Virus record (IMG/VR): IMGVR_UViG_3300045988_122072
Location: 64,001-128,000 of that record
Origin: a virus
Reading direction: 5' to 3' (one strand)
DNA length: 64,000 bases
Position 1 is the first letter of the stretch. Each line of letters starts with the position of its first letter. The notes beneath the pieces are model-generated. The model did not search any database. It saw only the letters and a list, made by a program, of their open reading frames with translations, and was not told the DNA's origin. This document shows, in pieces, positions 486-59,845 of the stretch. Position numbers and translations under genes: made by a program.

Positions 486-500
486 CAATACAAAATTAAT
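486..500 (+). promoter_or_regulatory. leader motif copy (CAATACAAAATTAAT family)
   Basis: Reads caatacaaaattaat directly after the stop of the first ORF; no obvious promoter upstream. Confidence 0.6.
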
Positions 501-570
501 ATAAGGATGTGATATTTATGATTATTTGTAAACAATGTTTTAAAGGAGATGAACCGCGCAAGAAGGAAAC

Positions 571-584
571 AACACAAAATTAAG
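571..584 (+). promoter_or_regulatory. leader motif variant (AACACAAAATTAAG)
   Basis: Reads aacacaaaattaag and runs straight into the RBS GGAGG of the 596 gene. Confidence 0.45.
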
Positions 585-595
585 GAGGAACGAAA

Positions 596-1348
596 ATGAA
601 AATATTTGCAGTATCAGATATTCATTCGTTTTATACGCCTATGAAAGAAGCGCTTGATAAAGCTGGATTTGAGTCTGGGAATGAGCAACAGTTGCTAGTG
701 ATTTGTGGAGATTGCTTTGATAGGGGCAATGAAAGTCAACAGGTTTTAGACTATTTAATGAATGTACCAAATAAGGTACTTGTCAAAGGCAATCACGAGA
801 GCCTTTTCGAAGAGTTTTGTCAGCGCCGCTATCCTATGTCTCATGACTGGTCAAATGGTACGGCAAAAACTATTATGGATTTGGCTCCAGAAGCAAAAAA
901 CTGGGATGTCGCTTGCATGGTTGCAATTGAAAAGATGAAGCCGCTGCTAGATCAAATGGTTGATTACTATGAAACAGAAAACTATATATTCGTGCATAGC
1001 TTCGTTGCCCTAAAGTGCAATGATAATTATCCTGTATATTATACAAGAAATAGAAAGTTTGAGTATGATCCAGATTGGAGAACGGCTCACGCTTCTGCTT
1101 GGGAAACTGCCAGATGGGGAAATCCACTTGATCTTGCAATGAAAGGGCTAAACAAAACAGGGAAAACAATCATAGCGGGTCACTGGCACTGTTCGACTGG
1201 CTGGGCAATGGAAGCTGGTATCCCTGAGTTTGGATATGGTTCATGTTTTGAACCGTATTATTACAAGGATGAGCTAATTATGATTGATGCTTGTACAGCT
1301 TACACGCACAAAGTAAATATACTTGTGATTGAAGATAATTTAATTTGA
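596..1348 (+). CDS. calcineurin-like metallophosphoesterase / Ser-Thr phosphatase family
   Basis: Motifs SDIH, GDCFDRG, GNHE and GHWH in the translation; RBS TAAGGAGG 7 nt upstream. Confidence 0.85.
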   Translation: MKIFAVSDIHSFYTPMKEALDKAGFESGNEQQLLVICGDCFDRGNESQQVLDYLMNVPNKVLVKGNHESLFEEFCQRRYPMSHDWSNGTAKTIMDLAPEAKNWDVACMVAIEKMKPLLDQMVDYYETENYIFVHSFVALKCNDNYPVYYTRNRKFEYDPDWRTAHASAWETARWGNPLDLAMKGLNKTGKTIIAGHWHCSTGWAMEAGIPEFGYGSCFEPYYYKDELIMIDACTAYTHKVNILVIEDNLI

Positions 1349-1361
1349 AAGGAAATTAATT

Positions 1362-1736
1362 ATGAAAAACTGGTGGAAGAATCCTGTACTACAGGGAGAA
1401 GACAATGATTATGGTCAGTATGATTATCTTATTGAAGAGCTTCCACATGACGAAGCCAATTGGGAATGGTATTACAGAAAGTGTGATGCTTGCGGGAAAT
1501 ATCATAGGTTGAATTTTTATTCTAACCATTACTTTTACACGTATGACGGTTGGGATTCGTTTGATTATACTGATTGTTGGAAGTGCAGATTTGAGAATAA
1601 GGTTTGGGGAATCAAGAATAAAATTAAAAAGGAAATTAAAGCTCATAAGCTGGCGTTTTCTCTGCTAAATAGAAAACATTCTGTTAAGAGAAATCTTGAG
1701 TATTATAAACTTGGGCTTAAAATTGGTAGAAATTGA
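1362..1736 (+). CDS. hypothetical protein
   Basis: ORF track; RBS GAAAGGA upstream; followed by an intrinsic terminator. Confidence 0.6.
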   Translation: MKNWWKNPVLQGEDNDYGQYDYLIEELPHDEANWEWYYRKCDACGKYHRLNFYSNHYFYTYDGWDSFDYTDCWKCRFENKVWGIKNKIKKEIKAHKLAFSLLNRKHSVKRNLEYYKLGLKIGRN

Positions 1737-1762
1737 GACTCGTGAATAACGGGTCTCTTTTT
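1735..1762 (+). terminator. rho-independent terminator
   Basis: GAGACTCG-TGAATAA-CGGGTCTC hairpin followed by TTTTT. Confidence 0.75.
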
Positions 1763-1781
1763 AATTGAAAGGAGATTAATT

Positions 1782-2303
1782 ATGCAACATATTATCAAAA
1801 AAGGATATAAGTTATTTGAAATGAGGGATGACAATAAGTTATTCCCTCTTTTTATTTCTAAGACTACAGAAACACCAATGCATGAATGGGTTATGGCGGA
1901 AATAGTTGAATATCACCCTCAGTTTGCACATCGTCCGGGGTGGCATTTGGGTGCGGTAATTCCCTCTGCTCCATGGCTTATGTCTGCAAATGGAACTTAT
2001 AAAAGCCAAAGAGGAAAACGCTTCAAGAGAGTTTGGTGCGAAGTAGAATATGTGGCAGATATTGATTATACAGAAATTGTAGAAAAGCTTCCTAAGAAAT
2101 GTTTTACAGATAGATTACCTGATAATGGATTTTATAAATTCAGAGAATCTGGAAATAGACTCTGGGTTATTGCTGATAGAATCAGGATTACAAGAATTAT
2201 TAGTGAAGATGAAAGACAGAACATTTTGGTATCTATGAATTATAACGAAGCAGAAGCATTTGAACCTTATCGTAAGGCAATGAAAAAGAGGATGGCGAGT
2301 TGA
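1782..2303 (+). CDS. hypothetical protein
   Basis: ORF track; RBS GAAAGGAG upstream; no family recognised. Confidence 0.6.
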   Translation: MQHIIKKGYKLFEMRDDNKLFPLFISKTTETPMHEWVMAEIVEYHPQFAHRPGWHLGAVIPSAPWLMSANGTYKSQRGKRFKRVWCEVEYVADIDYTEIVEKLPKKCFTDRLPDNGFYKFRESGNRLWVIADRIRITRIISEDERQNILVSMNYNEAEAFEPYRKAMKKRMAS

Positions 2304-2322
2304 CAAAATATTCTCAAAATTC

Positions 2323-2351
2323 TTGACAAAACAAAATTAATGTGGTAAGAT
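2323..2351 (+). promoter_or_regulatory. sigma-A-type promoter
   Basis: TTGACA (2323-28), 17-nt spacer, TAAGAT (2346-51). Confidence 0.5.
2328..2341 (+). promoter_or_regulatory. leader motif variant (AAAACAAAATTAAT) inside a promoter spacer
   Basis: Reads aaaacaaaattaat between the -35 and -10 of the 2323 promoter. Confidence 0.45.
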
Positions 2352-2369
2352 TATCATAGAAAGGAAAGG

Positions 2370-2603: not shown

Positions 2604-3018
2604 AAAGGTAAAGTATAATGGAGAACCTGCATTTGTATACTATAACGCAAATCCAAAAGAAAAAAATACTGATGATTGTGTAATTAGAGCAATCGCAGCA
2701 GCAGAGGGAAGAGAATGGGTGGACGTGTTAAAGCAACTGACTGATTATGCAATTAAAACTGGGTATATGACAACAGCTGTAGAAAATTATACCATATATT
2801 TTAAGGAAAACGGCTGGACAGAAAAATCACAGCCAAAGAAAGCGAATGGTAAAAAATATAAGGCATATGAATTTGCAAAAATTTATAACGGGAGATGTCT
2901 TGCTCATGTTGGAGTGCACCACATGAGCTATTTGTGTGATCATAGCTGGTACGATTCTTGGAACTGTACGGAAGGCGTCGTAGGGAAATATTGGGTTTAT
3001 GAAGGAGAGATTAAATGA
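2596..3018 (+). CDS. hypothetical protein (possible Cys/His peptidase-like)
   Basis: In frame with ORF 2509..3018; start moved to ATG 2596 behind RBS GGAGGT. Contains a DDCVIRAIA segment and a later HVGVHH. Confidence 0.5.
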   Translation: MYKKVKYNGEPAFVYYNANPKEKNTDDCVIRAIAAAEGREWVDVLKQLTDYAIKTGYMTTAVENYTIYFKENGWTEKSQPKKANGKKYKAYEFAKIYNGRCLAHVGVHHMSYLCDHSWYDSWNCTEGVVGKYWVYEGEIK

Positions 3019-3446
3019 GCTATGCTAATCAGAATTTTAATGAATGGCTTGCAGATAAGCAATTGAGCGGAAGATACAAGACAAAATTATATCTTGATGG
3101 TGATATAGAATGTCAAGCAGATCATAAAATCTATCATCTGAAAGGAATATATTATGTTGATTCAATGTATAATAATGGCGTTTACAGCTGCGTTAATGAA
3201 GATGGGATTGGAATAAGTGCAAAGCATAAAGATTTGGTTAGAATTGTTAAGCAAGTATATAACCAAAAGGATGTAGACAATTGGGTTAAATCTTCACGAG
3301 ATAAAAATCAGTATGTAGATACTTTCAACGGAACGCTTTGGTATATCGTATTGATGATTTTAGTAAGCTTATTTACTGGAAGGATTGTAGGCTGGATATT
3401 CATTACGATTGTATATTTTATATGGAAATATCAAAAACATAATTAA
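3015..3446 (+). CDS. hypothetical protein with C-terminal transmembrane segment
   Basis: ORF track; RBS GAAGGAG; start overlaps the upstream stop (ATGA). Hydrophobic tail WYIVLMILVSLF...WIFITIVYFIW. Confidence 0.55.
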   Translation: MSYANQNFNEWLADKQLSGRYKTKLYLDGDIECQADHKIYHLKGIYYVDSMYNNGVYSCVNEDGIGISAKHKDLVRIVKQVYNQKDVDNWVKSSRDKNQYVDTFNGTLWYIVLMILVSLFTGRIVGWIFITIVYFIWKYQKHN

Positions 3447-3463
3447 TATTAAGGAGGTAAATT

Positions 3464-4444
3464 ATGAACGGAAGACTTGAAGCTGAATTAAATAAACAAA
3501 AGTTAATTAAAGACAAACTTAAATATTTGCCTAAAGTTTTCGAAGAATTTTATTATTACATGGATGAAGATGATAGATCATATAATACTATTGAGCATTA
3601 TATTGATTATAATGTAGAATTTATGAACTATATTACAAACGGAAATAAAGATGAATATTATTATAAAAATGTAAATTCAACGCACATCAAACAATTTATT
3701 AGTTCACAACGTACTAAAGAAATTAATGGAGAGCTGGTTAGAATCGGTGATAGCATTTTGGCTACAAAATTTTCAGCTATTAAAAAATTCTTTTCATTTT
3801 TAATTGATTCAAATTATATTGATGAAAATCCGGTAGAAGGAGTTCGAAGACCAAAAGTTAAAACAGATCATACGGTTACATTTCTTGAAGAAAACGAAAT
3901 CAATAAGTTGTTTTCAAATATTAAAACAATGGCAAATGAAAGATTATTAAATAGAGATTTGTGTATGTTCTCTTTATTTATTTCTACTGGTCTTAGAAAA
4001 TCTGCGTTAGTGCAGATCAATGTGGAAGATGTTAATTTTAAGACAAATACAATTAAGGTAATTGAAAAAGGAAGAAAGGAAAGGTTGATTAGTTTTGGCG
4101 GAAATATGAGACAGCTTTTATTAAACTGGATTCAAGATAGAAGAGATTATTTTAAAGTAGAAGAAAGTGGGCCATTATTTGTTTCTCAATGGAATAATAG
4201 AATGTCTACAAAAAATGTAGAAATGTTGTTAGCGAAGTATCTAGATGGCGTGAGCGATAAACATATCACAGTTCATAAACTTAGGGCGACCGCTGCAACC
4301 CAAATGGCAGCACATGATGTCCCGGTTCAGGTTATAAAGGAAATGTTGAATCATGAAAATGTTTCTACAACAATGAGATATGTTGCTGCAATTGACAGCC
4401 AGAAGCAAGAAGCAGTCAATATTCTTGATAGCATCGTGAAATAA
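3464..4444 (+). CDS. tyrosine recombinase (XerC/D-like phage integrase family)
   Basis: C-terminal HKLRATAAT...HENVSTTMRYV (H-x-x-R and catalytic Y); RBS TAAGGAGG. Confidence 0.85.
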   Translation: MNGRLEAELNKQKLIKDKLKYLPKVFEEFYYYMDEDDRSYNTIEHYIDYNVEFMNYITNGNKDEYYYKNVNSTHIKQFISSQRTKEINGELVRIGDSILATKFSAIKKFFSFLIDSNYIDENPVEGVRRPKVKTDHTVTFLEENEINKLFSNIKTMANERLLNRDLCMFSLFISTGLRKSALVQINVEDVNFKTNTIKVIEKGRKERLISFGGNMRQLLLNWIQDRRDYFKVEESGPLFVSQWNNRMSTKNVEMLLAKYLDGVSDKHITVHKLRATAATQMAAHDVPVQVIKEMLNHENVSTTMRYVAAIDSQKQEAVNILDSIVK

Positions 4445-4446
4445 TC

Positions 4447-4475
4447 TTGACTAAATTAATATTGTATTGTATAAT
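4447..4475 (+). promoter_or_regulatory. sigma-A-type promoter
   Basis: TTGACT, 17-nt spacer, TATAAT. Confidence 0.6.
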
Positions 4476-4501
4476 GTAAACCATAGGGGAGTGAAAAGGA
4501 G

Positions 4502-5389
4502 ATGTTTGACAAAGAACAAAAAGAGGCATTTATAAAGGAATATTTAAAAAGTAAGGTAGTTGCAAAGACTAGCCTTTATGCGGTTTTCAGAAAGACGGAA
4601 CCATTTGAAGAGAAATTAAATAAAGATGTATCACAATTTACAAGAGAAGAAATATTGGATATGTTTGCGCAATTCAGAGCGAAATCTGTAAATTCATTAT
4701 TAAATTACGCCATCATATTGAAGCATTATTCACGTTTAATGCGTGGAGAAAATGAATATGAATCAATTACAAAGGCAGATGTTGTGGATCTCATTGATAA
4801 AAGCGGAAATATATTATTAAGTAGAGAAGAACTTGATGATATTGAAGCGCAACTTTTAAACTGGTCAGATAAAGCCATAGTTGAACTACTTTGGGAGGGT
4901 ATATCTGGCAAAAATATGATTGATATATATTCGGTCTCAGAAGAATGTATACAAGGTGATATGCTGTGCGTTAATGGAAAAGAATTTTATATGACTAACA
5001 GATTAAAAGAATTGTTACTAAAGGCTTTTGCCGAAACAGAGATCATGAGCTATGGCAATACAATGCGAATAGTTGAAGTAGAAGGCAAAGGAAGACTTTA
5101 CAAGGAAAGAGCAAATACTAGAGGCGTCGATTCTGACGATCAAAAATTCCGTTATTTCTATCGTCGTATTCAAATATTCAGAGAGTATTTAGATATACCA
5201 GGACTAACCATGAAGAATCTTAGCGCATCTGGAATGTTTTACTATATTCAACTTGGTATAAAGGAAACAGGTCTAGCGCTTAGAGAGTTTTTAAAAACTT
5301 CAAAAGGAAAAGAATTAGCAATTCAATATGGATTTGCAGAAGACTATTATGTTGATACGATAGCACAGAAATACGAGCAATATATTTAA
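4502..5389 (+). CDS. hypothetical protein downstream of the recombinase
   Basis: ORF track; RBS AAAAGGAG; no family recognised. Confidence 0.6.
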   Translation: MFDKEQKEAFIKEYLKSKVVAKTSLYAVFRKTEPFEEKLNKDVSQFTREEILDMFAQFRAKSVNSLLNYAIILKHYSRLMRGENEYESITKADVVDLIDKSGNILLSREELDDIEAQLLNWSDKAIVELLWEGISGKNMIDIYSVSEECIQGDMLCVNGKEFYMTNRLKELLLKAFAETEIMSYGNTMRIVEVEGKGRLYKERANTRGVDSDDQKFRYFYRRIQIFREYLDIPGLTMKNLSASGMFYYIQLGIKETGLALREFLKTSKGKELAIQYGFAEDYYVDTIAQKYEQYI

Positions 5390-5416
5390 TTATGTTGCTC
5401 ATTATTCAAATGCTTA

Positions 5417-5431
5417 CAGTACAAAATTAAT
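5417..5431 (+). promoter_or_regulatory. leader motif copy (CAGTACAAAATTAAT)
   Basis: Reads cagtacaaaattaat in the intergenic region, upstream of the 5464 promoter. Confidence 0.5.
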
Positions 5432-5463: not shown

Positions 5464-5492
5464 TTGCATGTTATGGAAAAGTATAGTATAAT
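5464..5492 (+). promoter_or_regulatory. sigma-A-type promoter
   Basis: TTGCAT, 17-nt spacer, TATAAT. Confidence 0.5.
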
Positions 5493-5529
5493 AGTAGTAC
5501 AAACTTTAGACGAAAAGGGGAGAAAAAAC

Positions 5530-6102: not shown

Positions 6103-6104
6103 CA

Positions 6105-6119
6105 CAATACAAAATTAAT
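6105..6119 (+). promoter_or_regulatory. leader motif copy (CAATACAAAATTAAT)
   Basis: Exact 15-mer, 9 nt upstream of RBS AAAGGAG. Confidence 0.6.
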
Positions 6120-6141: not shown

Positions 6142-7281
6142 ATGAATAATTTCAGTTTTGTAGGCTATCTACGTAAGGTAAAGGACAAGGAAAATTTTAA
6201 AGGATTCGAATCGAAAACTTACGACAGCGGGTGGATGTCAGAAAGAACAAGATTCAATATTGTATGTGGCGATTCAAGCCATCTGGTAGAAGTTAATGCA
6301 GGACGTTGGATTGACGAGTCGAAGAACGTTATCTACGGATTTACCAAGGGAGATGCCAATAAGAAGGGTGAAACTTTCCAAGTTCCTTGGAATCAGAGAA
6401 ATAATCCAGATATCATTGAAAAAATGGCAGGTTTCAAGATCATGACGATAGATCTCGACACATATCAGCACCGTAAGGACGTAGAAGATAGCGGTGATGC
6501 TGAGGCTATTGCTAAGTCTAATAGTAAGAGAAAGCATTTTCTTGCTGGCACTGAATTCTGTGAGTATGTAAATAAGCTAGTCAATAGTGACAAGATTGCA
6601 AATGTAAAATTTAGAGTTAACGGTAACGTAACCTATACATATAGCGAAAAGAATGATAGATATTATTCAACTTTTGAAGTGAATAAGATTTACAGAGTAG
6701 ATGATTCTGTTGAATCTTCAAGTGAAGTCAACATTGATTTTTATTTTGGCAATGATTGCGTTGATGCAGATGATTATGACGAAACAGGACACGCAATTGT
6801 TAATGGTTGGACTCCGTTCTACGATGGAAATACAAAGAAGAATTGGTATTGCCCAATCACTCTTGCAATGAGATTCGGAACAGACGATAAGGGAAAGAAG
6901 CAGCTAAAGGGATGGAAGAAAATTTTTGATAAGTTTGAAGATGAAGAAATTCGTAGAATCGTACTAACATGCGACCAGATTAATGGGGCACAAAAAGTAG
7001 ATATTTCTTATGATGACCTCGATGAAGATACACGAGATAATATTGATTTTGGAATTATCTCTCTAGAAGACGTTATTAGGGATCTTGGTGGTCAGATGTA
7101 TGGCGATAGAATTCAGGAAATTAGAATCAACAAGCCGGGTCGTGGCTTCACTAAGGGATCTGAAACTACTATGTATACAATTGATGATATGAACCAGAAG
7201 CCTGTAAGAGAGATTGCGGCGAAGGTTGAAGATAATGACGAAGAGGACGAGGATATCGATCTTTTTGATGACGAACTTTGA
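6142..7281 (+). CDS. putative ssDNA-binding protein (acidic C-terminal tail)
   Basis: RBS AAAAGGAG. C-terminus EDNDEEDEDIDLFDDEL resembles SSB acidic tips. Sits at the head of the replication module. Function is inferred only. Confidence 0.45.
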   Translation: MNNFSFVGYLRKVKDKENFKGFESKTYDSGWMSERTRFNIVCGDSSHLVEVNAGRWIDESKNVIYGFTKGDANKKGETFQVPWNQRNNPDIIEKMAGFKIMTIDLDTYQHRKDVEDSGDAEAIAKSNSKRKHFLAGTEFCEYVNKLVNSDKIANVKFRVNGNVTYTYSEKNDRYYSTFEVNKIYRVDDSVESSSEVNIDFYFGNDCVDADDYDETGHAIVNGWTPFYDGNTKKNWYCPITLAMRFGTDDKGKKQLKGWKKIFDKFEDEEIRRIVLTCDQINGAQKVDISYDDLDEDTRDNIDFGIISLEDVIRDLGGQMYGDRIQEIRINKPGRGFTKGSETTMYTIDDMNQKPVREIAAKVEDNDEEDEDIDLFDDEL

Positions 7282-7284: not shown

Positions 7285-7307
7285 GTAGGGGGATTAATTC
7301 TCCCTAC
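7285..7307 (+). other. stem-loop without U-tract
   Basis: GTAGGGGGA-TTAAT-TCTCCCTAC, immediately followed by a leader motif. Confidence 0.4.
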
Positions 7308-7321
7308 AACACAAAATTAAT
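7307..7321 (+). promoter_or_regulatory. leader motif copy (CAACACAAAATTAAT)
   Basis: Reads caacacaaaattaat; no promoter seen upstream. Confidence 0.55.
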
Positions 7322-7341: not shown

Positions 7342-8529
7342 ATGGCAAGAAAGTATGGACGTACATATAAACTAAGTAAGAATTTTGAAGATTATTCGTA
7401 TATCATTAACGGAATTGGTGGTATTGGTAAGACTACAATGGTTTATGAAATCGGTAAGCTAATCACTGGCAGTAATGAGGGCACATTTATTATCACTTGT
7501 GGCGTAGAAAATAAGCCAAAGCATATTGATGATGCATTCGGTGATGTTGCACCTGATTTTAAGACTTTTACTGACATTGTAAAGGAGCTTTGTGAAAACA
7601 AAGCAGATTATCCAGCAACCAAGTTCGTAGCTATTGATTCCATGGACGAATATGCAAGAATTACGGAGAATTATGTTGTGGCAGAGTGGAATAAGACTTG
7701 TGACATCAATGATAGAGCGAAGTCAATTTCTCAGGCTTACAAGGGATTCCAAAAGGGCGAGAACAGAGCTTGCGATTTGATGCTAAACCAGATCATGAAG
7801 CTACAAAATGCGGGTTATTCGCTACTACTCGTAGGCCACACAAAGACAAAACTCAAGGAAGACGTTATTACGAAGGTTCAATTTGAGCAACTTACATGTA
7901 ATCTTGATAACAAATATTATAACGCATTAAAGGACAAAGTGAATTTGGTCGTAATGTGTTATAACGAAAACGTTGTTGATAACATTGAGGAGAAGAAGAA
8001 TGCTTTTACTAAGAAGATGGAGAAGATTGGTCAGCTTACTGATCGTAAGAGAGTGATGGTCTTTGCAGATACGGAAAACGCCGTTGATTGTAAGAGCCAT
8101 TTCCCGTACATTGTAGCAAAAGCCGATTTTGGAGCCGCCAATTTTATTAAGGCAGTTAGAGATGCGCTTGAAGAACAGAGCAAGCATCCAAATTGCGAAG
8201 CCGATATTTCAAAAGTCAAGAAGCTAAACGCAAATGAAGAATCGCTTGAAGACCACGTAACCGTCACAAAGGAAGAAGCACAGGAGCTTCACGATATGGG
8301 AGCAGTTCTTCTAGACGATGAAGATGAGGATCTAGACTCTCCGCCTTTTGATGCAGATGATGATGAAGAGCCATTTGATGTAGAATCTGCCAAGGCAAAT
8401 TTACGCAGCCTTTTTAAAACTGGCACAGCAGAGCAGAAGAAGGCAGTAAAGGAAATCCGTGGCGATAAGACTTTAGCTCAGATTAGCGATCAAGAGACCA
8501 TTGAGAAGATGTTGGCGGTATTTGAATAA
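7342..8529 (+). CDS. P-loop AAA ATPase (AAA_24 / Sak4-like)
   Basis: Walker A INGIGGIGKTT; acidic C-terminal region. Start moved to ATG 7342 behind RBS AAAAGGAG. Confidence 0.65.
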   Translation: MARKYGRTYKLSKNFEDYSYIINGIGGIGKTTMVYEIGKLITGSNEGTFIITCGVENKPKHIDDAFGDVAPDFKTFTDIVKELCENKADYPATKFVAIDSMDEYARITENYVVAEWNKTCDINDRAKSISQAYKGFQKGENRACDLMLNQIMKLQNAGYSLLLVGHTKTKLKEDVITKVQFEQLTCNLDNKYYNALKDKVNLVVMCYNENVVDNIEEKKNAFTKKMEKIGQLTDRKRVMVFADTENAVDCKSHFPYIVAKADFGAANFIKAVRDALEEQSKHPNCEADISKVKKLNANEESLEDHVTVTKEEAQELHDMGAVLLDDEDEDLDSPPFDADDDEEPFDVESAKANLRSLFKTGTAEQKKAVKEIRGDKTLAQISDQETIEKMLAVFE

Positions 8530-8599
8530 ACAATTTATGGAGGAGGTGGAGGTTCTGCCTCCTCCAATGTTTAGAAATATGAGTGAAAGGAGAATGGAA

Positions 8600-9106
8600 A
8601 TGAGGCAAGTTAAATGCCGTAACTGTGGCACATTTATCAATAGAGACTCTGCCATTAGCGTCCAAAATGGAAAGGCAAAACTATGGTATTGCAATTCTTC
8701 GTGTTTAGAGCAAGCAACAAAAAATGCGTTAGAAACTGCAAAGAAAAAAGAAGAATATGACTCTATTTTTGAAGAGACGAAAGTTATATTTGGATATGAT
8801 TTTCAGGGATATAGTCTTCTAAAAAAAGAAGTTCAAAACTGGGAAAAACTCGCGAATAGAAATAAGATATTAAATTATCTTAAAGAAAACGAAAATTATT
8901 TATCTTCTATCTTGGCAAAAAAAGAATTTGCAAATGACTATAATAGAATAAGATATTATAGCGTTATTGTATCTTCAAAATTGCACGATTATCAAGGTAA
9001 AACAGAAGAGAAAGTTGTCCCGAAGGTTGATATGATTTTTTACGAACCAAGCCAAACGAGCAACAACAAACGTAGATCATTGGAGGACTTGGAGGATGAA
9101 TTTTAA
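8600..9106 (+). CDS. hypothetical zinc-ribbon protein
   Basis: In frame with ORF 8501..9106; ATG 8600 lies 7 nt after RBS AAAGGAG. CRNCG...CNSSC. Confidence 0.5.
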   Translation: MRQVKCRNCGTFINRDSAISVQNGKAKLWYCNSSCLEQATKNALETAKKKEEYDSIFEETKVIFGYDFQGYSLLKKEVQNWEKLANRNKILNYLKENENYLSSILAKKEFANDYNRIRYYSVIVSSKLHDYQGKTEEKVVPKVDMIFYEPSQTSNNKRRSLEDLEDEF

Positions 9107-12572: not shown

Positions 12573-12574
12573 CA

Positions 12575-12589
12575 TAGTACAAAATTAAT
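12575..12589 (+). promoter_or_regulatory. leader motif copy (TAGTACAAAATTAAT)
   Basis: Begins 3 nt after the -10 box. Confidence 0.55.
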
Positions 12590-14106: not shown

Positions 14107-14108
14107 GA

Positions 14109-14123
14109 CAATACAAAATTAAA
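14109..14123 (+). promoter_or_regulatory. leader motif copy (CAATACAAAATTAAA)
   Basis: Begins 3 nt after the -10 box and abuts RBS GGAG. Confidence 0.6.
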
Positions 14124-16389: not shown

Positions 16390-16638
16390 ATGGCAGAAAA
16401 AGATCAATTGTTGCAGAATATTTTATCACGTGTGGGACAATTTGAATATAATTTCGGATATGATTCTGTTAAGGCAATTTTTGTAAATGATTATGCATGG
16501 AAGCTGATTACAACGTACCGCATATATGAAATGCAATATTTCAATGGTGGTTATGGATGTGTCGGTAGGCTTTATGGATATTTAACGTACAGATATCATG
16601 ACGATAAGAATGCGCCAGATTTTTATATTGGCGTATAA
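16390..16638 (+). CDS. hypothetical protein
   Basis: In frame with ORF 16348..16638; ATG 16390 behind RBS TAAGGAGGG. Confidence 0.5.
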   Translation: MAEKDQLLQNILSRVGQFEYNFGYDSVKAIFVNDYAWKLITTYRIYEMQYFNGGYGCVGRLYGYLTYRYHDDKNAPDFYIGV

Positions 16639-16653
16639 CAGCACGAAATTAAT
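16639..16653 (+). promoter_or_regulatory. leader motif variant (CAGCACGAAATTAAT)
   Basis: Starts right after the stop codon and abuts RBS GAGGTG. Confidence 0.45.
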
Positions 16654-37506: not shown

Positions 37507-37508
37507 AA

Positions 37509-44108: not shown

Positions 44109-44125
44109 AATGGCAGAAACAAGAA

Positions 44126-44140
44126 CAATACAAAATTAAA
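44126..44140 (+). promoter_or_regulatory. leader motif copy (CAATACAAAATTAAA)
   Basis: 18 nt after the -10 box; abuts RBS GGAGG. Confidence 0.6.
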
Positions 44141-51025: not shown

Positions 51026-51043
51026 AATAACACTTAAAAAATA

Positions 51044-51058
51044 CAATACAAAATTAAA
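51044..51058 (+). promoter_or_regulatory. leader motif copy (CAATACAAAATTAAA)
   Basis: Lies between the 50997 promoter and tnpB. Confidence 0.6.
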
Positions 51059-51126
51059 GAATAAAATATCATACGAATCATACGAAACGGTAAGAAGCAA
51101 AATTTTCAGAAAGGAGGTAATAGTTG

Positions 51127-52236
51127 ATGAAAATTTTAAGAGCATATAAATACCGGATATATCCAAATCAAGAGCAAGAAATTTTAATTCAAAAAACATT
51201 TGGATGTGTAAGGTTTGTATATAATCAGGCACTTTCATATCGTCAAGAATTATATAAAACCAAAAGAAAAAATATCAGTAAATTTGCTTGTGAACAGTAT
51301 ATGATTCAAGTTCTAAAACAACAATATGAATGGTTGAGAGAAGTTGATAAATTTGCATTATCAAGTGCAATTTGGAATATGGATTATGCATATCAAAAAT
51401 TTTTCAAAGAACATGCAGGCTTCCCGAAGTTTAAAAGCAAACATAATCACAGAAAATCATATACAACAAAAATAACAAATAACAATATTGCAGTTTCTTT
51501 TGAGAACAATAAAATTAAGCTTCCAAAGTTAAGTTGGGTTAAAGCAAGGATTCATCGTAAATTTGTTGGCAAAATTAAACAAGCAACAGTTTCACAAAAT
51601 CCATCAGGAAAATATTTTGTTTCTGTGTTAGTAGAAGAAGAACATCGTCCATTATTAACAACCGGTTCTACTATTGGACTTGATCTTGGAATTAAAGATT
51701 TGGTTATTACCTCCAATGGTAAAAAATATGCAAATCCAAAAATCTTAGAGAAGTATAAAAAGAAACTTTCTAAAGAACAACGAAGAATGACTCATAAACA
51801 AAAAAGTTCAAGTAATTATAACAAACAACGCATTAAAGTTGCTCGTATTTACGAAAAAATCCATAATATCAGATTAGATTATCTACACAAAATATCTAAT
51901 GAAATTATTAGCGAAAACCAAGTAATAATTTCTGAAGATTTATCCATATCTAATATGATGAAGAACCATAAACTAGCAAAATCAATTAGTGATTGTGGCT
52001 GGTACGAGCTAACGAGGCAATTAGAATATAAGGCAAAATGGAATGAAAGACAATATATCAAGATTGGAAGATTCATTCCATCGAGTCAAATTTGCAATTG
52101 TTGTGGATACAGGTATCCAGAAACAAAAGATTTATCGGTTAGAGCATGGACATGTCCTAGTTGTGGAACAAAACACGACCGAGATATTAATGCGGCTAAA
52201 AATATTTTAGACGAAGGATTAAAATTTGTGGTGTGA
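51127..52236 (+). CDS. tnpB: TnpB (IS200/IS605 OrfB, RuvC-like RNA-guided nuclease family)
   Basis: N-terminal [16 protein letters not shown]; GLDLGIKD RuvC-I; zinc finger CNCCGY...[18 protein letters not shown]. Confidence 0.85.
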
Positions 52237-52370: not shown

Positions 52371-52372
52371 AA

Positions 52373-52387
52373 CAGTACAAAATTAAT
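52373..52387 (+). promoter_or_regulatory. leader motif copy (CAGTACAAAATTAAT)
   Basis: 3 nt after the -10 box; abuts RBS GAAGGAGG. Confidence 0.55.
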
Positions 52388-53062: not shown

Positions 53063-53615
53063 TAGAAAAACTATTTTCTTAATTCTAGGGGAAAGTGGTT
53101 GTGGTAAAGACTATTTGGTGGACAGACTTTGCAAAACTGGTCTAAAAAAACTTATTAGTCATACAACCCGTGAAAAGCGTAAAGACGAACCTGACACTAG
53201 CCACATTTTTTCAACATACGAAGATTATCAGAACGCCAAAACATCGAATGATATTATTGCAGAGACTTGTATCAATGATGTGTTATATTGGAGTACAAAG
53301 AGTCAGTTGGCAGATGCGGATTTGTATATTATCGACAATGTTGGAACTGACATGTTGCTAAAGATGGGGTTGCCGTATAGATTTGTACGTATTTATATTA
53401 ATGTACCAAAGGCTATTCGCAGAGAAAGAGCTGTTAAACGCGGAGATAACATGGATACATATGCCAAACGTGCCGCTGACGAATTTGAGCAGTTCGCAAA
53501 TATGAAGATTCACAATAGATATGATTATGCAGTTTCTAATATTGACAGTGCAAAAGCTGGTAGCATTATTAGATGGATTATTAATACCGAAAGAATTGGC
53601 ACAGTACAAAATTAA
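53055..53615 (+). CDS. guanylate-kinase-like (d)NMP kinase
   Basis: P-loop GESGCGKD followed by SHTTREKRKDEPD...HIFSTYEDY, which resembles the GMK TTRxxRxxE...YxFvs pattern. Confidence 0.55.
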   Translation: MDDRKTIFLILGESGCGKDYLVDRLCKTGLKKLISHTTREKRKDEPDTSHIFSTYEDYQNAKTSNDIIAETCINDVLYWSTKSQLADADLYIIDNVGTDMLLKMGLPYRFVRIYINVPKAIRRERAVKRGDNMDTYAKRAADEFEQFANMKIHNRYDYAVSNIDSAKAGSIIRWIINTERIGTVQN

Positions 53616-53616
53616 A
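53602..53616 (+). promoter_or_regulatory. leader motif copy (CAGTACAAAATTAAA) overlapping a stop codon
   Basis: Covers the last codons and TAA of the kinase gene; abuts RBS AAGGAG of the next gene. Confidence 0.5.
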
Positions 53617-54203: not shown

Positions 54204-54805
54204 ATACAAGAATTAATTATATTTCAGATTCTTGGACAAGAATAAAAAATCATTGTAGAACAACTGTCAATAAGAAATTCACAGAAAAAGAGCCAACTGA
54301 TAAGTTTAAGGAAGAACTTTTAATTAGCGAACATTCTCCTATTAGATGTCTTGAGGTTGATTGGACATGGGAGAATATTCCTTATTGGGTAAGTACGGAA
54401 CTAAGCCGCCATAAGCATGAAAAGTTTATTAGTTCACAGCGTGATGACAGAAATAATAATGAAATTCCTCGCGGAAAGAAACCACAAGATTCTCCCGTCA
54501 CTCATGACGCATATGCAAATGCCCAGAATCTAATTGACATGATGCGTAAAAGACTTTGTTTTATGGCAACCAAAGAAGCTAGAGAAGCGGCAGAAAATTT
54601 GAAATATGAACTACATAATTACGAACCACAACTAGCAAATGTGCTTATGCCGAATTGCTTATATAGAGCAGGATGTCCAGAGTTTGAAACTTGCGGATTT
54701 TGGAAGAAGTTCAAGGAAAAACATCCAGATGTAGATATGACCGATATTAAAGAAAGATATCGAGCATATAATGAAGATTTTTATAAGAAATTTAATGAGG
54801 AGTGA
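54200..54805 (+). CDS. ThyX-like protein (divergent flavin-dependent thymidylate synthase?)
   Basis: SRHKHEKFISSQR resembles, but is one residue shorter than, the ThyX RHRxxxxxxxSxR motif. TTG start 11 nt after RBS AAGGAG. dNTP-metabolism context. Confidence 0.35.
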   Translation: MNTRINYISDSWTRIKNHCRTTVNKKFTEKEPTDKFKEELLISEHSPIRCLEVDWTWENIPYWVSTELSRHKHEKFISSQRDDRNNNEIPRGKKPQDSPVTHDAYANAQNLIDMMRKRLCFMATKEAREAAENLKYELHNYEPQLANVLMPNCLYRAGCPEFETCGFWKKFKEKHPDVDMTDIKERYRAYNEDFYKKFNEE

Positions 54806-55608
54806 TGTCTGTGACTGTAGAACAATGGCTTGGTAAAGATAATAAAATTGGTATTGATATTTGGCACAAGAAATATCAGTACAACAATGAAAATTTTGAC
54901 GAATGGTTAGATAGAGTAAGCGCTGGAGATAAAGAGCTAAAACAACTTATCATTGAAAAGAAATTTTTAATGGGTGGTAGAACACTTGCTAATCGTGGTA
55001 CAAATAGTACTGGTAGCCTGTTTAATTGTTACTCCAGAGGCTATGTTGAAGATGACTATTCTGATATTATGGATGCTGCAAAAGACATTGGCGTAACATT
55101 TAAGGCTCAGGGAGGACAGGGCATTTCTCTTACTAAGCTTCGTCCAAAGGGCACACCAATCAAGAAAGAATATTTTTCTGATGGTATTGTACCATTTATG
55201 AAGATTTTTAATGAAGTTACCGCAGGGACTTCTCAGGGTGGGGCTCGAAAGGGAGCGCTTATGCTTTCTGTCGATGCTAGGCACAAGGAAGCAGAAACAT
55301 TCATTAAGATTAAGTCAAAGGACGGAGAGATTGAAAAGGCGAATCTATCTCTTGAAATCGATGATGAATTTATGAGAGCCATTGAGAAGTATTATGATAC
55401 TGGAGAAGTTGTCGTGCTGCATGAAAAGCGTAATTATGCTGGTCATGAAGTAGAATATGATGTAACGCCAATTAACATTTTCAATATGCTTGTAGATAAT
55501 TGTTATGATTGGGCAGATCCTGCATGTTTGTTTGTTAATAGGTTTAGAAATTATAATCTAATGCAGTATGATGATGAATATGAAATTGAAACTTGCAATC
55601 CTTGTGGT
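54805..55608 (+). CDS. nrdJ: class II (B12-dependent) ribonucleotide reductase NrdJ, exon 1
   Basis: Ends ...EIETCNPCG at 55608; the downstream in-frame sequence immediately hits a stop (WLTCRK*). Confidence 0.8.
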
Positions 55609-56053
55609 TGGTTAACTTGCCGCAAGTAAAACATCCCGTAAAATCGGTGAAGCCTACACCGAAAGGCATGGTAATACCGAGTTCCCACTGCATCACAGGG
55701 GAATGTAACGCATAGGCGATGAGCGGATATGAGAGCAATAATTCGCCCACGAGTACGGGACATTGGCACATAACGGAGTGATAATATTGATTATATATAA
55801 AGTAATAAACATTATTAATGGCAAGGTGTACAAATGAATATTATCAATGAAAAATATGATCTTAAAGACATTAGAAGCCTATATCCTTGCTTTAATGTTA
55901 AAAATTCAAAAGATCTTGCAAACTGTTTAAAAGATTATGTGCTAAATGAAAATATATGCTGAACTGGTCTGAACTGACAGACGTATCGGGTTATACCCGT
56001 ATGAGAGAAATCTCCAGAAGCTATGGATAAAAAGCCATAGCGATAACACACAG
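55609..56053 (+). ncRNA. group I self-splicing intron in nrdJ
   Basis: Splits the conserved NPCG|EQPLP active-site motif. P1 pairs CTTGTGGT (55601-08) with GCCGCAAG (55619-26), with U-G at the 5' splice site. The last intron nucleotide is G (56053). Confidence 0.75.
55787..55837 (+). pseudogene. decayed GIY-YIG homing-endonuclease remnant inside the intron
   Basis: Translates LIIYKVINIINGKVYK*, matching the start of the GIY-(x10)-YIG module and then truncated. Confidence 0.5.
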
Positions 56054-57526
56054 GAGCAACCACTTCCAAAGCATGGAGCATGTTGCTTGTCATCCCTTAA
56101 CCTATCTGAGTTTGTTGTAAACCCATATACTCCAACTGCGCATTTGAACACAGAAGATTTCCTTCATGCTATTGATGTTGGAATTAGAACTCTTGATAAG
56201 CTAATTGACGAAAACTACAATAGGCACCCGCTACAGCAGCAAAGAGATATGTCATATAATTATAGAAACATTGGTCTCGGCATTTTTGGATATGCAACTG
56301 CTCTAATGAAGCTTGGACTTAAGTATGGTTCAAATGAAGCAATCGAATTTACTGATGATGTATTTTCACTTTTATTCAAACGAGCAGTATTCGCAAGCAA
56401 TAATCTTGCAAAAGAATTAGGTACATATCCGAAGTATAAGGAGTGCGTATTTGATAGCGACATTATTAAGAATCATTTTACACCAGATGAAATTGATGGT
56501 CTAAAAGAACACGGTCTTAGAAACTGCTCTTTAATTTCAATTGCTCCGAATGGGTCTCTTGCTACTTTACTTGGAGAATCTGGTGGATGTGAGCCTGAGT
56601 TTGCACTTAAGTATACACGTAGAACTGTCGGTATGACAGACGGCGAAGATACTTATTATGATGTTTACTGTAAAGCAGCAAAAGAATATATGGATGCAAA
56701 CCATACAGATATCCTTCCAGACTATTTTGTTGGCTCTGCAGATATTCCTTGGCAAAATAGAGTGCTAACACAGGCGGCTATGCAAAACCATGTAGATACT
56801 GCAATTAGTTCTACAGTAAATATGCCTAATTCTGCTACAAAAGAAGATGTAGCTCATATGTATTTACTTGCGTGGTCAACTGGCTGTAAGGGCATTACGA
56901 TGTTTAGAGATGGATGTAAACGCCTTGGCATTCTGACAACAGACAAATCTGAAAGTGGCACAGACGAAAATGGAATTAAGCCTTATGAACTTCCACGTGG
57001 CGCTATTATTGAATGTTCTAGTGACCTAGTTGGTAAAAAGCGCAAGCTTACTACGGGGTGTGGTAGTTTACATGTTCTTGCATTTTTTGACCCATATGAT
57101 GGCTCACTACAAGAAGCATATTTCAATAAGGGGTCAACTGGAGGATGCGCCAACTTTATGACTGGTCTTAGCAGAACAGTTTCACTATTGTGCAGAGCAG
57201 GTGTTGATATTATGACCATTAAAGATCAACTAGATTCTACTGGCGCTTGTCCGAGCTATGCCGCAAGAACTGCAACTAGACATGATACATCTAAGGGGTC
57301 ATGTTGTCCAATGGCAATTGGTAATGCATTAGTTGAAATGTATAATGAGATGCAACAAGATATTGGTGATAATGAAGAGGAAATTAATACTGATACAGTT
57401 GTTCATCAGATAACGAAGCCTGAACAAATTAATTCAAACGATAGATGCCCAGAATGTGGGTCTATTCTTGAACACGTTGGCGGCTGTGATTTGTGTAAAA
57501 ATTGTGGATTTACTCACTGTGGGTAA
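56054..57526 (+). CDS. nrdJ: class II ribonucleotide reductase NrdJ, exon 2
   Basis: In-frame continuation EQPLPKHGACCLSSLNLSEFV...; IAPNGSL...GGCEPEF; C-terminal Cys4 ribbon CPECG...CDLCKNCG. Confidence 0.8.
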   Translation, partial: EQPLPKHGACCLSSLNLSEFVVNPYTPTAHLNTEDFLHAIDVGIRTLDKLIDENYNRHPLQQQRDMSYNYRNIGLGIFGYATALMKLGLKYGSNEAIEFTDDVFSLLFKRAVFASNNLAKELGTYPKYKECVFDSDIIKNHFTPDEIDGLKEHGLRNCSLISIAPNGSLATLLGESGGCEPEFALKYTRRTVGMTDGEDTYYDVYCKAAKEYMDANHTDILPDYFVGSADIPWQNRVLTQAAMQNHVDTAISSTVNMPNSATKEDVAHMYLLAWSTGCKGITMFRDGCKRLGILTTDKSESGTDENGIKPYELPRGAIIECSSDLVGKKRKLTTGCGSLHVLAFFDPYDGSLQEAYFNKGSTGGCANFMTGLSRTVSLLCRAGVDIMTIKDQLDSTGACPSYAARTATRHDTSKGSCCPMAIGNALVEMYNEMQQDIGDNEEEINTDTVVHQITKPEQINSNDRCPECGSILEHVGGCDLCKNCGFTHCG

Positions 57527-57528
57527 TA

Positions 57529-57543
57529 CAATACAAAATTAAT
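57529..57543 (+). promoter_or_regulatory. leader motif copy (CAATACAAAATTAAT)
   Basis: Exact 15-mer 3 nt after the nrdJ stop. Confidence 0.6.
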
Positions 57544-58341: not shown

Positions 58342-58650
58342 ATGGATAATAATATTAACACAAGAAAATATAGTTGTGCAGTATGTGGCAAAGAATATGA
58401 TAGCATTGAAGATCGCAATAAGTGTGAAGCTCAGTGCATTGCTGACCGCAAAAAGGCGGAAGCGGCACTTGCAAAGAAAAAGCTTGAGGACGAAAAGGCT
58501 GCTCGTAAGGCAGAAATTGATAAGAAGTACAAGGAACTAAATGTTCTTATCGACAATTATATCAAGGACTATGGCTCCATTCAGATTGGTGAGGCTCGTT
58601 ATTTTGATGATTTCCCTGCGCTATCTAAGCTGCTTGGAGGTTGGTTTTAA
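58342..58650 (+). CDS. hypothetical zinc-ribbon / coiled-coil protein
   Basis: CAVCG...CEAQC; RBS AAAGGAG. Confidence 0.5.
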   Translation: MDNNINTRKYSCAVCGKEYDSIEDRNKCEAQCIADRKKAEAALAKKKLEDEKAARKAEIDKKYKELNVLIDNYIKDYGSIQIGEARYFDDFPALSKLLGGWF

Positions 58651-59156
58651 TGAATGTAAAGTTTGCAAAAGTAAGACCAAGCGCAAAGGCTCCAATTAAA
58701 GGAGATGCTGGCAACATGTGCTTTGATTTCTTCCCTTGTTTTGAGCAGGACTGGATTGAAATTAAGCCATTTGAAGTGAAGCTGGTACCTACTGGTATTG
58801 CGACCGCTTTTGATAACAGCCTAGGTCTAGTCTTTAGAGAGCGTGGCTCTACAGGGAAGATTAATCTCAAGGTTAATTCTGGTGTAGTAGACGCAAATTA
58901 TAGAGGAGAAATTTTTGTGGCTCTCCTAAATTGTAATAAAGACAGGTCAATCTTTATTTCTAAATTTGGAGATACTGGAGAACAGTCTCCTTTGACTGAA
59001 CATCCAGATGGAATTCTTGTTCCATATGAAAAGGCTATTTGCCAAGGAATGTTTTTACCAGTTCCTGAAATTGAACTTGAAGAAATTGGTTTTAATGAGC
59101 TATCTCAAATTCCCTCTGCAAGAGGAGCAAATTGTCTTGGTAGTAGCGGGCGCTAA
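58650..59156 (+). CDS. dut: dUTP diphosphatase (trimeric dUTPase)
   Basis: GVVDANYRGEI (motif III) and SARGANCLGSSG (motif V). ATG 58650 overlaps the upstream TAA. Confidence 0.85.
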   Translation: MNVKFAKVRPSAKAPIKGDAGNMCFDFFPCFEQDWIEIKPFEVKLVPTGIATAFDNSLGLVFRERGSTGKINLKVNSGVVDANYRGEIFVALLNCNKDRSIFISKFGDTGEQSPLTEHPDGILVPYEKAICQGMFLPVPEIELEEIGFNELSQIPSARGANCLGSSGR

Positions 59157-59169
59157 TTAAATAAAAAAT

Positions 59170-59202
59170 ACGGGACTACTGGAATAAAGCCAGTAGCCCC
59201 GT
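59170..59202 (+). terminator. terminator hairpin ending the long + strand block
   Basis: ACGGGACTACTGG-AATAAAG-CCAGTAGCCCCGT, A-rich before and AAAATTT after; weak U-tract. Confidence 0.5.
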
Positions 59203-59276
59203 AAAATTTATATATAACAATGCAACCATTTAAATAATTGCCATATTTATTTAAAAATATTCAAGGAGATGATATA

Positions 59277-59471
59277 ATGAAATATATTACCGTTAAACAA
59301 TTATATGAAAAATTAAATGCACAACATCCTGGTATAATAGGAATCAATTCTGTATATGATCTTGTCAAAAGAAAAGACTTCCCCTCCGTAAGAATCGGCA
59401 ACAAATTTCTTATCATTGAAGATAAAGTTGATGCATGGTTCGAGAAAAAGACATTGGCATATAAAAAATAA
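59277..59471 (+). CDS. xis: excisionase-family HTH protein
   Basis: ITVKQLYEKLN...SVYDLVKRKDFPSVRIGNKFLI typical of the HTH_17/Xis family. ATG 59277 behind RBS CAAGGAG. Lies upstream of int. Confidence 0.6.
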   Translation: MKYITVKQLYEKLNAQHPGIIGINSVYDLVKRKDFPSVRIGNKFLIIEDKVDAWFEKKTLAYKK

Positions 59472-59495
59472 TCATTAAGCCTTGCTATGCATTGC

Positions 59496-59534
59496 AAATT
59501 GTGGTACAATCAAATTGTGGTAAATGATGTGGTC
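59496..59534 (+). repeat. arm-type repeat cluster (TGTGGTA/C, 3 copies)
   Basis: AAATTGTGGTA at 59496-506 and 59512-22; ATGTGGTC at 59527-34. Confidence 0.5.
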
Positions 59535-59755
59535 AAATACAAAACACATTCACACAAACACTAGTCGAATCAATACTTTGAAGTTCTTACCTAGGTAGGT
59601 TTAGTTTATCCATTTGAATAAAAATTAGCGCAATAAATATTATCATTATATAATCAACAAACCTAGTATTTTCAATGGATTAGCCCTAATATATAAATCA
59701 TAAGCATTTCACTAACATTCATTGTTTTTGATGTTTTTTCACCATATTTAATACC

Positions 59756-59801
59756 ATAATTGTGGTATAAATGTGGTACGAAATTTACAACTTGACCACA
59801 T
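59756..59801 (+). repeat. arm-type repeat cluster (2 direct copies plus 1 inverted)
   Basis: ATAATTGTGGTA 59756-67; AAATGTGGTA 59769-78; inverted TGACCACAT 59793-801. Confidence 0.5.
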
Positions 59802-59821
59802 TAGTTAACATAAATTATAAT
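59792..59821 (+). promoter_or_regulatory. sigma-A-type promoter for int
   Basis: TTGACC, 18-nt spacer, TATAAT. The -35 overlaps the inverted repeat copy. Confidence 0.5.
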
Positions 59822-59830
59822 AGTAGTACA

Positions 59831-59845
59831 ATTAATTTTGTATTG
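59831..59845 (-). promoter_or_regulatory. leader motif copy in inverted orientation
   Basis: + strand reads attaattttgtattg, the exact reverse complement of CAATACAAAATTAAT. Lies between the int promoter and RBS. Confidence 0.6.

Follow-up and report, generated by a model that had tools for sequence, protein, structure and literature searches.

The stretch of viral DNA analysed here (IMG/VR record IMGVR_UViG_3300045988_122072, positions 64,001 to 128,000; 64,000 nt, referred to throughout as the window) is syntenic with the Bacillus prophage SPbeta in both gene content and gene order. It contains a yotB-like metallophosphoesterase gene, a gene for a YopP-like recombinase followed by an MrpR-like gene, and replication genes resembling yorG, yorH, yorI (encoding DnaB), yorK (RecJ) and yorL (the alpha subunit of DNA polymerase III, Pol III alpha), as well as yorR/S-, nrd- and dut-like genes, the products encoded including a thymidylate-kinase-like protein, NT5C, a split ribonucleotide reductase (RNR) and a dUTPase. 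All genes up to about 61 kb lie on the + strand. Scattered among them is a short repeated motif, here called the box, which is very probably, judging from the sequence comparisons set out below, the DNA operator of the phage's master lysogeny repressor, a protein of the MrpR/YopR/SroF type encoded at positions 4502–5389. The set of boxes is most likely a further example of the MrpR (SroF)–box system of SPbeta and phi3T, not a new RNA signal. What is new with respect to SPbeta is minor, namely the promoterless boxes, the inverted boxes at lysogeny genes, and a box sequence of its own with a natural specificity variant.

A first-pass annotation of the window had described the motif as a recurrent 15-nt unit. 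The core of that unit was correct; a position weight matrix built from the copies, however, contains an invariant A one base 5' of the 15-mer, and the unit is therefore 16 nt long, ACA(A/G)TACAAAATTAA(A/T), with the consensus ACARTACAAAATTAAW. Directly outside these 16 nt the information content is about zero. The repetition is real and far above chance: with up to two mismatches, the 16-mer occurs 23 times in forward and twice in reverse orientation, against 0.77 and 0.5 copies in Markov-1 simulated sequences, while the 15-mer CARTACAAAATTAAW has 14 exact matches (13 on the + strand and one on the − strand; 0.01 expected) and 27 matches with up to two mismatches (2.7 expected), frequencies that base composition does not explain. 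The coordinates first given were right to within 1 nt (571 becomes 570, and 2328 becomes 2327), and two of the copies then listed proved weak: that at 19614 has three mismatches yet stands directly before a Shine–Dalgarno (SD) sequence, and that at 30414 retains only a 10-nt core, with four mismatches over 16 nt. The inverted copy at 59831 had been recognized, but it is not the only one, as a second (4455–4470, one mismatch) had been missed. An Rfam scan gave no family match at any box.

Twenty-three of the 25 boxes in the window point in the same direction as the gene they would regulate, the exceptions being those in the mrpR and integrase promoters (Table 1). Sixteen strong sigmaA-type promoters (no more than one mismatch to TTGACA/TATAAT) are present on the + strand; 12 are followed by a forward box, two are associated with an inverted box (mrpR and integrase) and two have none. 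These early promoters are closely alike (CTCTTGACAAAT...). The earlier view that the motif is no part of the core promoter was correct, and about half of the copies do stand behind a TTGACA/TATAAT promoter; their distance from the −10, however, is not freely variable, as had been thought, but bimodal. In six copies (12575, 14109, 18681, 24091, 37509 and 52373) the 15-mer begins exactly 2 nt after the −10, and in seven (27170, 29877, 30291, 36185, 44126, 51044 and similar) it begins 13–18 nt after it. In the six copies of the first register, class ii, the box covers the predicted sigmaA start site, expected about 7 nt past the −10. Most boxes lie just 5' of a ribosome-binding site, as originally reported, with an SD beginning 0–12 nt past the end of the box in about 19 copies, and the copy at 30291 does precede a non-coding RNA island, being followed by two tRNA-like genes and no coding gene. 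The copy within a promoter spacer (15-mer start 2327) and the promoterless copies (15-mer starts 486, 570, 6105, 7307, 16639, 53602 and 57529) were likewise seen again. About eight boxes have no recognizable promoter (16-mer starts 485, 569, 6104, 7306, 16638, 53601, 57528 and perhaps 19613); these sit in stop codon–box–SD junctions of 30–40 nt. The box at 5416 is not an orphan, since a promoter, TTTGCA(5472)-18-TATAAT(5496), spanning 5472–5501, has its −35 about 40 nt downstream of it. An identical 16-mer, TATAATAGTAGTACAA, comprising the −10 and the next 10 nt, is found in this promoter after mrpR (5496–5511) and in the integrase promoter (59814–59829); TAGTACAA resembles half a box in the class-ii register. 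A 21-codon mini-ORF (open reading frame) with its own SD (517–582) separates the boxes at 485 and 569, its stop codon lying within the second box.

Table 1. Boxes, promoters and lysogeny genes of the window, with the mrpR promoters of two related contigs. Box positions are those of the 16-mer, whose start is 1 nt before that of the 15-mer; class ii denotes a box starting right after the −10.
Feature	Position	Strand or orientation	Conservation or database match
Forward box, promoterless, directly 3' of stop codon	485–500	+	Kept in relatives at 78% flank identity
Forward box, 2 mismatches, promoterless; SD immediately 3', gene 596–1348	569–584	+	
Promoter TTGACA-17-TAAGAT of operon preceding mrpR	2323–2351	+	
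Forward box filling spacer of promoter 2323; ACA of box = end of −35	2326–2341	+	Box 92%, flanks 79%
YopP-like tyrosine recombinase gene, immediately 5' of mrpR	3464–4444	+	Pfam Phage_integrase 7e-35
mrpR promoter TTGACT-17-TATAAT	4447–4475	+	Kept in relatives with 66–99% MrpR identity
Inverted box, 1 mismatch, exactly the 17-bp spacer of mrpR promoter	4455–4470	inverted	
mrpR/sroF-like gene, candidate box-binding repressor	4502–5389	+	Pfam, BLASTP and PDB matches
Forward box right after mrpR stop	5416–5431	+	Box 96% conserved, flanks 71%
Forward box, promoterless, before SD of gene 6142–7281	6104–6119	+	
Forward box 3' of hairpin, then SD of AAA_24 (yorG-like) gene	7306–7321	+	
Forward box, class ii, promoter at 12545	12574–12589	+	
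Forward box, class ii, promoter at 14079	14108–14123	+	
Forward box, 2 mismatches, promoterless, overlaps stop codon, SD 3'	16638–16653	+	
Forward box, 1 mismatch, class ii, follows TTGACA..TATAAA	18680–18695	+	
Degenerate forward box, 3 mismatches, abuts SD of gene 19646–20692; perhaps promoterless	19613–19628	+	
Forward box, class ii, promoter at 24061	24090–24105	+	
Forward box, 16 nt past −10 of promoter 27125	27169–27184	+	
Forward box, 17 nt past −10 of promoter 29831	29876–29891	+	
Forward box, 14 nt past −10 of promoter 30248; tRNA-like genes 3', no SD	30290–30305	+	
Forward box, 12 nt past −10 of promoter 36144	36184–36199	+	
Degenerate forward box, 2 mismatches, 28 nt 5' of start of gene 36373–37473	36329–36344	+	
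Forward box, class ii, promoter at 37479	37508–37523	+	
Forward box, 16 nt past −10 of promoter 44081	44125–44140	+	
Forward box, 17 nt past −10 of promoter 50997; TnpB gene downstream	51043–51058	+	
Forward box, class ii, promoter at 52343	52372–52387	+	
Forward box, promoterless, overlaps end of kinase gene, before SD of NT5C gene	53601–53616	+	
Forward box, promoterless, directly 3' of RNR gene stop	57528–57543	+	Kept in L247
Integrase promoter TTGACC-18-TATAAT, then inverted box	59792–59846	+	
Inverted box between −10 and SD of integrase gene	59831–59846	inverted	
Tyrosine integrase gene, promoter with inverted box	59854–61005	+	Pfam Phage_integrase 5.9e-27
L225 mrpR promoter TTGCAA-tTTATCATTTTGTagtg-TATAAT			
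L230 mrpR promoter TTGAAA-tACATCATTTTGTggtg-TATACT			

The product of the ORF at 4502–5389 matches the Pfam families MrpR_N_CB (3.4e-14) and MrpR_C_cat (2.9e-6; 27.6 bits against a cut-off of 27), aligns with SPbeta YopR at 25% identity over 281 aa (BLASTP, E 3e-13) and matches PDB entries 8a0a, 8bj6 and 9rd5 (MrpR/YopR, core-binding (CB)-domain protein) with E values of about 1e-9. It has no Pfam Phage_integrase match, unlike the product of the neighbouring ORF at 3464–4444. By these comparisons it is a homologue of the MrpR/YopR/SroF master repressor, and the residues L25/Y26 of the phi3T CB helix and the K-F-x-x-x-R pattern of the catalytic (CAT) helix are conserved in it. A feature expected under autoregulation is also present, in that boxes occupy both the promoter of mrpR itself (inverted) and the upstream operon promoter at 2323 (forward). 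In all clades the YopP-like gene adjoins mrpR, as in the yopP–yopQ–yopR order of SPbeta. No gene for a tetratricopeptide repeat protein of AimR size was noticed beside mrpR, and no arbitrium genes were seen in the window; the small ORFs around mrpR had no Pfam matches, and no search was made for Sar or an SOS box. Among about 60 ORFs of the window scanned against Pfam, none matched a sigma factor, an RNA polymerase or an RNA-binding regulator.

The motif is conserved in related phages, which form a large family of IMG/VR contigs of about 150–170 kb (designated here by L numbers). Their MrpR loci were collected with a single-protein query, which returned close relatives only, with an alignment query, which reached down to 66%, and, for a variant clade, by walking upstream from L128. 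The box is present on the coding strand at 6–14 copies per 23 kb in the tiers of 89% and 77% polymerase identity, and was not found in relatives below about 64% polymerase identity. Where orthologous regions align, boxes are 92–100% identical while the flanks (±60 nt) are 71–82% identical, and this holds for promoterless, spacer and inverted mrpR copies alike. The inverted integrase box is kept even beside an integrase allele of 60% identity with unrelated flanks, and with this allele a second inverted box is present upstream of the integrase promoter. In L239 and L250 a promoter on the − strand reads TTGACAATACAAAATTAATgtgaTATAAT, the spacer placement known from SPbeta but with the strand reversed, and a further copy lies in a promoter spacer of L128 (15055). 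The roughly 6 kb of the tail-gene cluster that were inspected contained no box. Some close relatives, such as L239, have an extra 405-aa gene (7537–8754, − strand) between integrase and tail genes, driven by a promoter at about 8815 with a box in its spacer; this gene is not in the window. A more distant lineage at 61% polymerase identity, with L138 (e.g. at 1936, 2979, 3441 and 13765), L136 and L141, carries a different strand-biased motif before the SD, AACAGAGAATATAT, and at the syntenic position the L138 and L145 lineages with this motif have no MrpR gene.

A sister clade (L128 and L224–L238) uses a different box, ACAAAATGATT, in the same niches and at up to 13 copies per 21 kb. Its MrpR is 32–37% identical to that of the window and again adjoins the YopP-like gene, and this clade's variant of the box recurs, inverted, in the spacer of its mrpR promoter (L225, TTATCATTTTGT; L230, ACATCATTTTGT). 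The box at 5416 has a counterpart at the matching position in this variant clade (L225, position 4376). When MrpR positions were matched through the PDB alignment to the residues with which the phi3T protein reads bases (L25, Y26 and H237), the equivalents were L, Y and Y in all proteins of the TTAAT type, even at 46% identity (L126), being L25/Y26/Y220 in the window, and T/V, R and Q in the TGATT clade; the K/R-F/Y and R238 equivalents are constant across both clades. The variant of the box and the predicted specificity residues appear to change together, which is supportive, though not conclusive, of a functional pairing of the two.

In SPbeta the role of master repressor belongs to MrpR, a protein folded like a tyrosine recombinase (Kohm et al., 2023, PMC10516654). 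Repressors of this type in SPbeta and phi3T no longer function as recombinases. Chromatin affinity purification with sequencing (ChAP-seq), electrophoretic mobility shift assays (EMSA) and lacZ fusions have shown that MrpR binds ten SPbeta promoter regions in which a 15-bp sequence, the SPbeta repeated element (SPBRE), occurs (PMC10516654). The structure of the phi3T counterpart SroF on DNA shows a monomer whose two domains clamp an asymmetric 26-bp box, of which 24 bp are read; SroF has multiple sites genome-wide, and several specificity types exist among SPbeta-like phages (bioRxiv 10.1101/2025.11.27.690993). Brady et al. (2021) contains nothing on box distribution. From the ten MrpR-bound regions we mapped 11 SPbeta boxes, aCAAATACAAA(A/T)AATATGTATAT, all 11 directed toward the downstream gene, including that of yonP, which is encoded on the opposite strand. 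Five boxes occupy a promoter spacer, their ACA forming the end of the −35 (yorE, yorM, yorZ, yosX and yonP), three lie between the −10 and the SD (yopV, yonX and yopM) and two upstream of the promoter. For SPBRE and the SPbeta repressor, Lazarevic (1999) is a source besides Kohm et al. (2023). The crystallographic box of phi3T has 25 copies in that genome (up to six mismatches), 25 of 25 running in the direction of the gene that follows; several stop precisely at an SD, and others border directly on a −35.

The window resembles SPbeta in having the repressor gene beside the YopP-like gene in a syntenic genome and an asymmetric, AT-rich box in the early region, directed toward the gene and placed in the spacer or between the −10 and the SD. 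In both, a box is found in the promoter of the repressor operon, and the left half of SPBRE, ACAAATACAAAT, resembles ACAATACAAAAT of the window box, ACAATACAAAATTAAT. It differs in that the two MrpR proteins are only 25% identical, in the length of the conserved block (16 bp against about 23 bp, the right half AATATGTATAT being absent) and in a density about five times higher (25 boxes in 64 kb against 11 in 134 kb). Moreover, mrpR of the window has its own promoter with an inverted box, and its integrase, presumably also box-controlled, is of the tyrosine type, whereas that of SPbeta is the serine recombinase SprA. In density and anatomy the window is nearly equal to phi3T, with about 25 co-oriented boxes of which many end at an SD, and the 3' part of the phi3T box in gene sense, ATAAAATTACT, resembles ACAAAATTAAT of the window. 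The phi3T box is nevertheless longer and of another sequence, no inverted boxes were seen in phi3T, and phi3T has an arbitrium system and a Sar antirepressor under LexA control. As with lambda CI and P22 C2, lysogeny would be kept by operators overlapping early promoters, with an autoregulated repressor gene; those repressors, however, are dimeric helix-turn-helix proteins acting on palindromic operators in two or three clustered regions, in contrast to some 25 dispersed asymmetric monomer sites.

For the window itself, box anatomy, conservation, protein homology and the co-variation of box and protein were observed; binding and repression data come from the work of others on SPbeta and phi3T, and by analogy with these phages we infer that the MrpR of the window binds the window box. 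Most likely, each box would be occupied in the lysogen by one repressor monomer. Where the box lies in the spacer between the −35 and the −10 or over the start site, host sigmaA RNA polymerase would be kept from binding, and where it lies 12–18 nt past the −10 or in a short intergenic gap, escape or elongation of the polymerase would be stopped, the outcome in either case being the silencing of replication, nucleotide-metabolism and other early genes. With inverted boxes at their promoters, the lysogeny genes mrpR and integrase would come under the same protein (autoregulation). Promoterless boxes are presumably functional because they are conserved, and the simplest reading is that a clamp on the DNA would block read-through transcription at these sites, although we infer this roadblock role. 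The one-way orientation of the boxes would follow from monomeric recognition of an asymmetric site, and their closeness to ribosome-binding sites from intergenic regions of only 30–40 nt.

Several points weigh against this hypothesis. The roughly eight promoterless boxes between stop codon and SD are mechanistically unexplained, and SPbeta has no such copies, although phi3T, unlike SPbeta, has several boxes abutting SDs. The likeness between the window box and SPBRE is confined to the left half and needs a 1-nt gap, and the conserved block is 16 bp here as against 23–26 bp in SPbeta and phi3T. An AlphaFold2 model of the protein encoded at 4502–5389 had a predicted local distance difference test score (pLDDT) of 55, too low for a fold search, so that the recombinase-like fold is a prediction from sequence homology. 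Co-variation of box and repressor is confounded with phylogeny because only two motif clades are available, and the YopP-like recombinase may be an alternative binder, since it co-occurs with mrpR in every clade. We also consider a more elaborate scheme, to which we would give only an outside chance, in which control is coded by orientation: in forward orientation a box would shut off lytic promoters or, at gene junctions lacking a promoter, form a polar roadblock, and the conserved inverted boxes at mrpR and the integrase gene would act differently, for instance through tuned autoregulation or activation. One asymmetric complex would then have opposite effects depending on its direction with respect to RNA polymerase. 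Alternatively, the promoterless boxes before SDs may have a second, RNA-level function.

Operation of the motif at the DNA level by a global regulator had been the fallback of the first-pass annotation, and it is this proposal that the MrpR homologue, the anatomy and conservation of the box and its co-variation with the protein favour. The reading then preferred was an RNA-level element of the 5' leader, that is, a site for an RNA-binding protein, a processing site or a translational enhancer just 5' of the SD. The copies ending 0–12 nt before an SD (about 19), the eight copies in intercistronic junctions without a visible promoter, the nearly invariable sense orientation and the G-poor, unstructured sequence would all suit such an element. 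Orientation bias and proximity to ribosome-binding sites are not specific to RNA, however, because the DNA boxes of SPbeta and phi3T share both, and the reading is not supported because copies lie in untranscribed spacers (2326, 4455, the − strand copies of L239 and L250, and 15055 of L128), transcription is predicted to start within six class-ii boxes whose 5' half is nonetheless equally conserved, the conserved inverted copies at the repressor and integrase promoters would appear in RNA as the complement, and the copy at 30290 precedes tRNA-like genes. The copy at 5416, upstream of a −35, and the negative Rfam result point the same way, and we regard an RNA element as very improbable. Little more probable, in our view, is a promoter for a phage transcription machinery (a YonO-like polymerase or a phage sigma factor) driving middle genes, with the inverted copies running antisense into mrpR and the integrase gene. 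Near-identical 16-mers with lineage-specific variants do resemble phage-polymerase promoters, promoterless copies directly precede genes, a G follows about half of the copies and relatives encode a YonO homologue. The YonO polymerase of SPbeta, however, transcribes late genes, whereas the boxes lie in the early region and are missing from the portion of the tail cluster inspected. Transcripts from such promoters would begin at or inside the SD, and the boxes keep fixed registers to the sigmaA −35 and −10, including the spacer copies that share ACA with TTGACA. The homologous SPbeta boxes are, furthermore, bound by MrpR in vivo (PMC10516654), and the box variant tracks changes at the DNA-reading residues of MrpR.

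The boxes might also be passive repeats, either promoter-leader cassettes spread by duplication or recombination, in the manner of the T4-type promoter–early-stem-loop (PeSL) elements, or an artefact of composition, and the great similarity of the early promoters and the AT-richness of the genome could be cited in favour of this. Against it, shuffled or simulated sequence yields less than one copy where 23 are observed, information content vanishes at the edges of the 16 nt, promoterless copies have nothing but the box in common, and across relatives the boxes are better conserved than their flanks; because of the shuffle controls and this phylogenetic footprinting, we find passive repetition scarcely credible. 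T4-late-type and T7-type phage promoters, promoters of AR9-type non-virion RNA polymerases (nvRNAP) and RegB-like RNase sites were considered as well and dropped, given the MrpR homologue and the spacer and inverted copies.

Among deposited phages no close relative was found by megablast of 20 kb of the window, and a contig search with the tail protein gave no match; the identity of the window's Pol III alpha to its counterpart in a human-faecal phage does not exceed 45%, and to those of large Bacillus/Geobacillus siphoviruses it is about 40%. The sole match among species-representative genomes is L251 (USJD01000001.1, 147,435 bp), a phage-sized contig in a metagenome-assembled genome labelled 'uncultured Prevotella sp.'. 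This label is doubtful because promoters of the sigmaA type and strong SDs point to a Firmicute host; it is probably a binning artefact and unreliable as to the host. A YonO-like single-subunit RNA polymerase (about 28% identity to SPbeta YonO) is encoded by the motif-bearing contigs L044, L049, L057 and L094, in L044 at 2784–4757 on the − strand with boxes 5' of its operon and directly after it; no YonO homologue lies within the 64-kb window.

A number of other genes in the window deserve mention. The large subunit of RNR is split between ORFs at 54802–55629 and 56087–57526, about 450 nt apart, with no Rfam intron match in the gap; bnrdE of SPbeta carries both an intron and an intein. An HNH/homing-endonuclease-like gene (10762–12207) is inserted between the DnaB-like gene and the genes that follow it, and its presence varies in relatives (L198 has a NUMOD-containing ORF). 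A gene for TnpB (IS605 OrfB/Cas12f-like) at 51124–52236 begins about 65 nt behind a box-bearing promoter (50997/51043) and looks as if inserted between it and the following pair of promoter and box at 52343. Directly behind another box-bearing promoter are two tRNA-like elements with large inserts (30341–30464 and 30473–30590; Rfam tRNA, 48.7 and 42.6 bits), and downstream of them the gene at 30797–32386 encodes a DUF2828/DUF7788 protein, annotated 'RNA-binding protein' in PHROGs; together these could form a module of the Ro/Y-RNA kind, its non-coding RNAs being tRNA-like. Six tRNA genes follow at 33045–34842 (Asp, Asn, Ile-tat, Gln, Gly and Lys), that for tRNA-Ile being 96 nt long and so containing an insert. 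An adenylosuccinate-synthetase (PurA-like) gene and genes for two HD-domain proteins (28655–29824, 38936–39757 and 43107–44033) look, from their predicted products, like the PurZ/DatZ-type genes of 2-aminoadenine (Z-base) phages. The genes for a Thg1-like 3'–5' nucleotidyltransferase, an AAA_33 kinase–HD fusion and an NAD-dependent ligase (43107–44033, 46061–46894 and 49054–50958) look like a nucleic-acid repair set.

If the boxes are operators of the MrpR homologue, the type of switch known from SPbeta and phi3T, in which a monomeric repressor of recombinase fold acts through dozens of asymmetric boxes, would extend from Bacillus phages to a large, uncultivated metagenomic family with genomes of about 150–170 kb. 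The two natural specificity variants, the TTAAT and TGATT boxes, together with the candidate specificity residues, could guide work on how the MrpR fold reads DNA. In these genomes the box would serve as a marker of early promoters and operon starts, and its presence would flag the phages that carry it as temperate.

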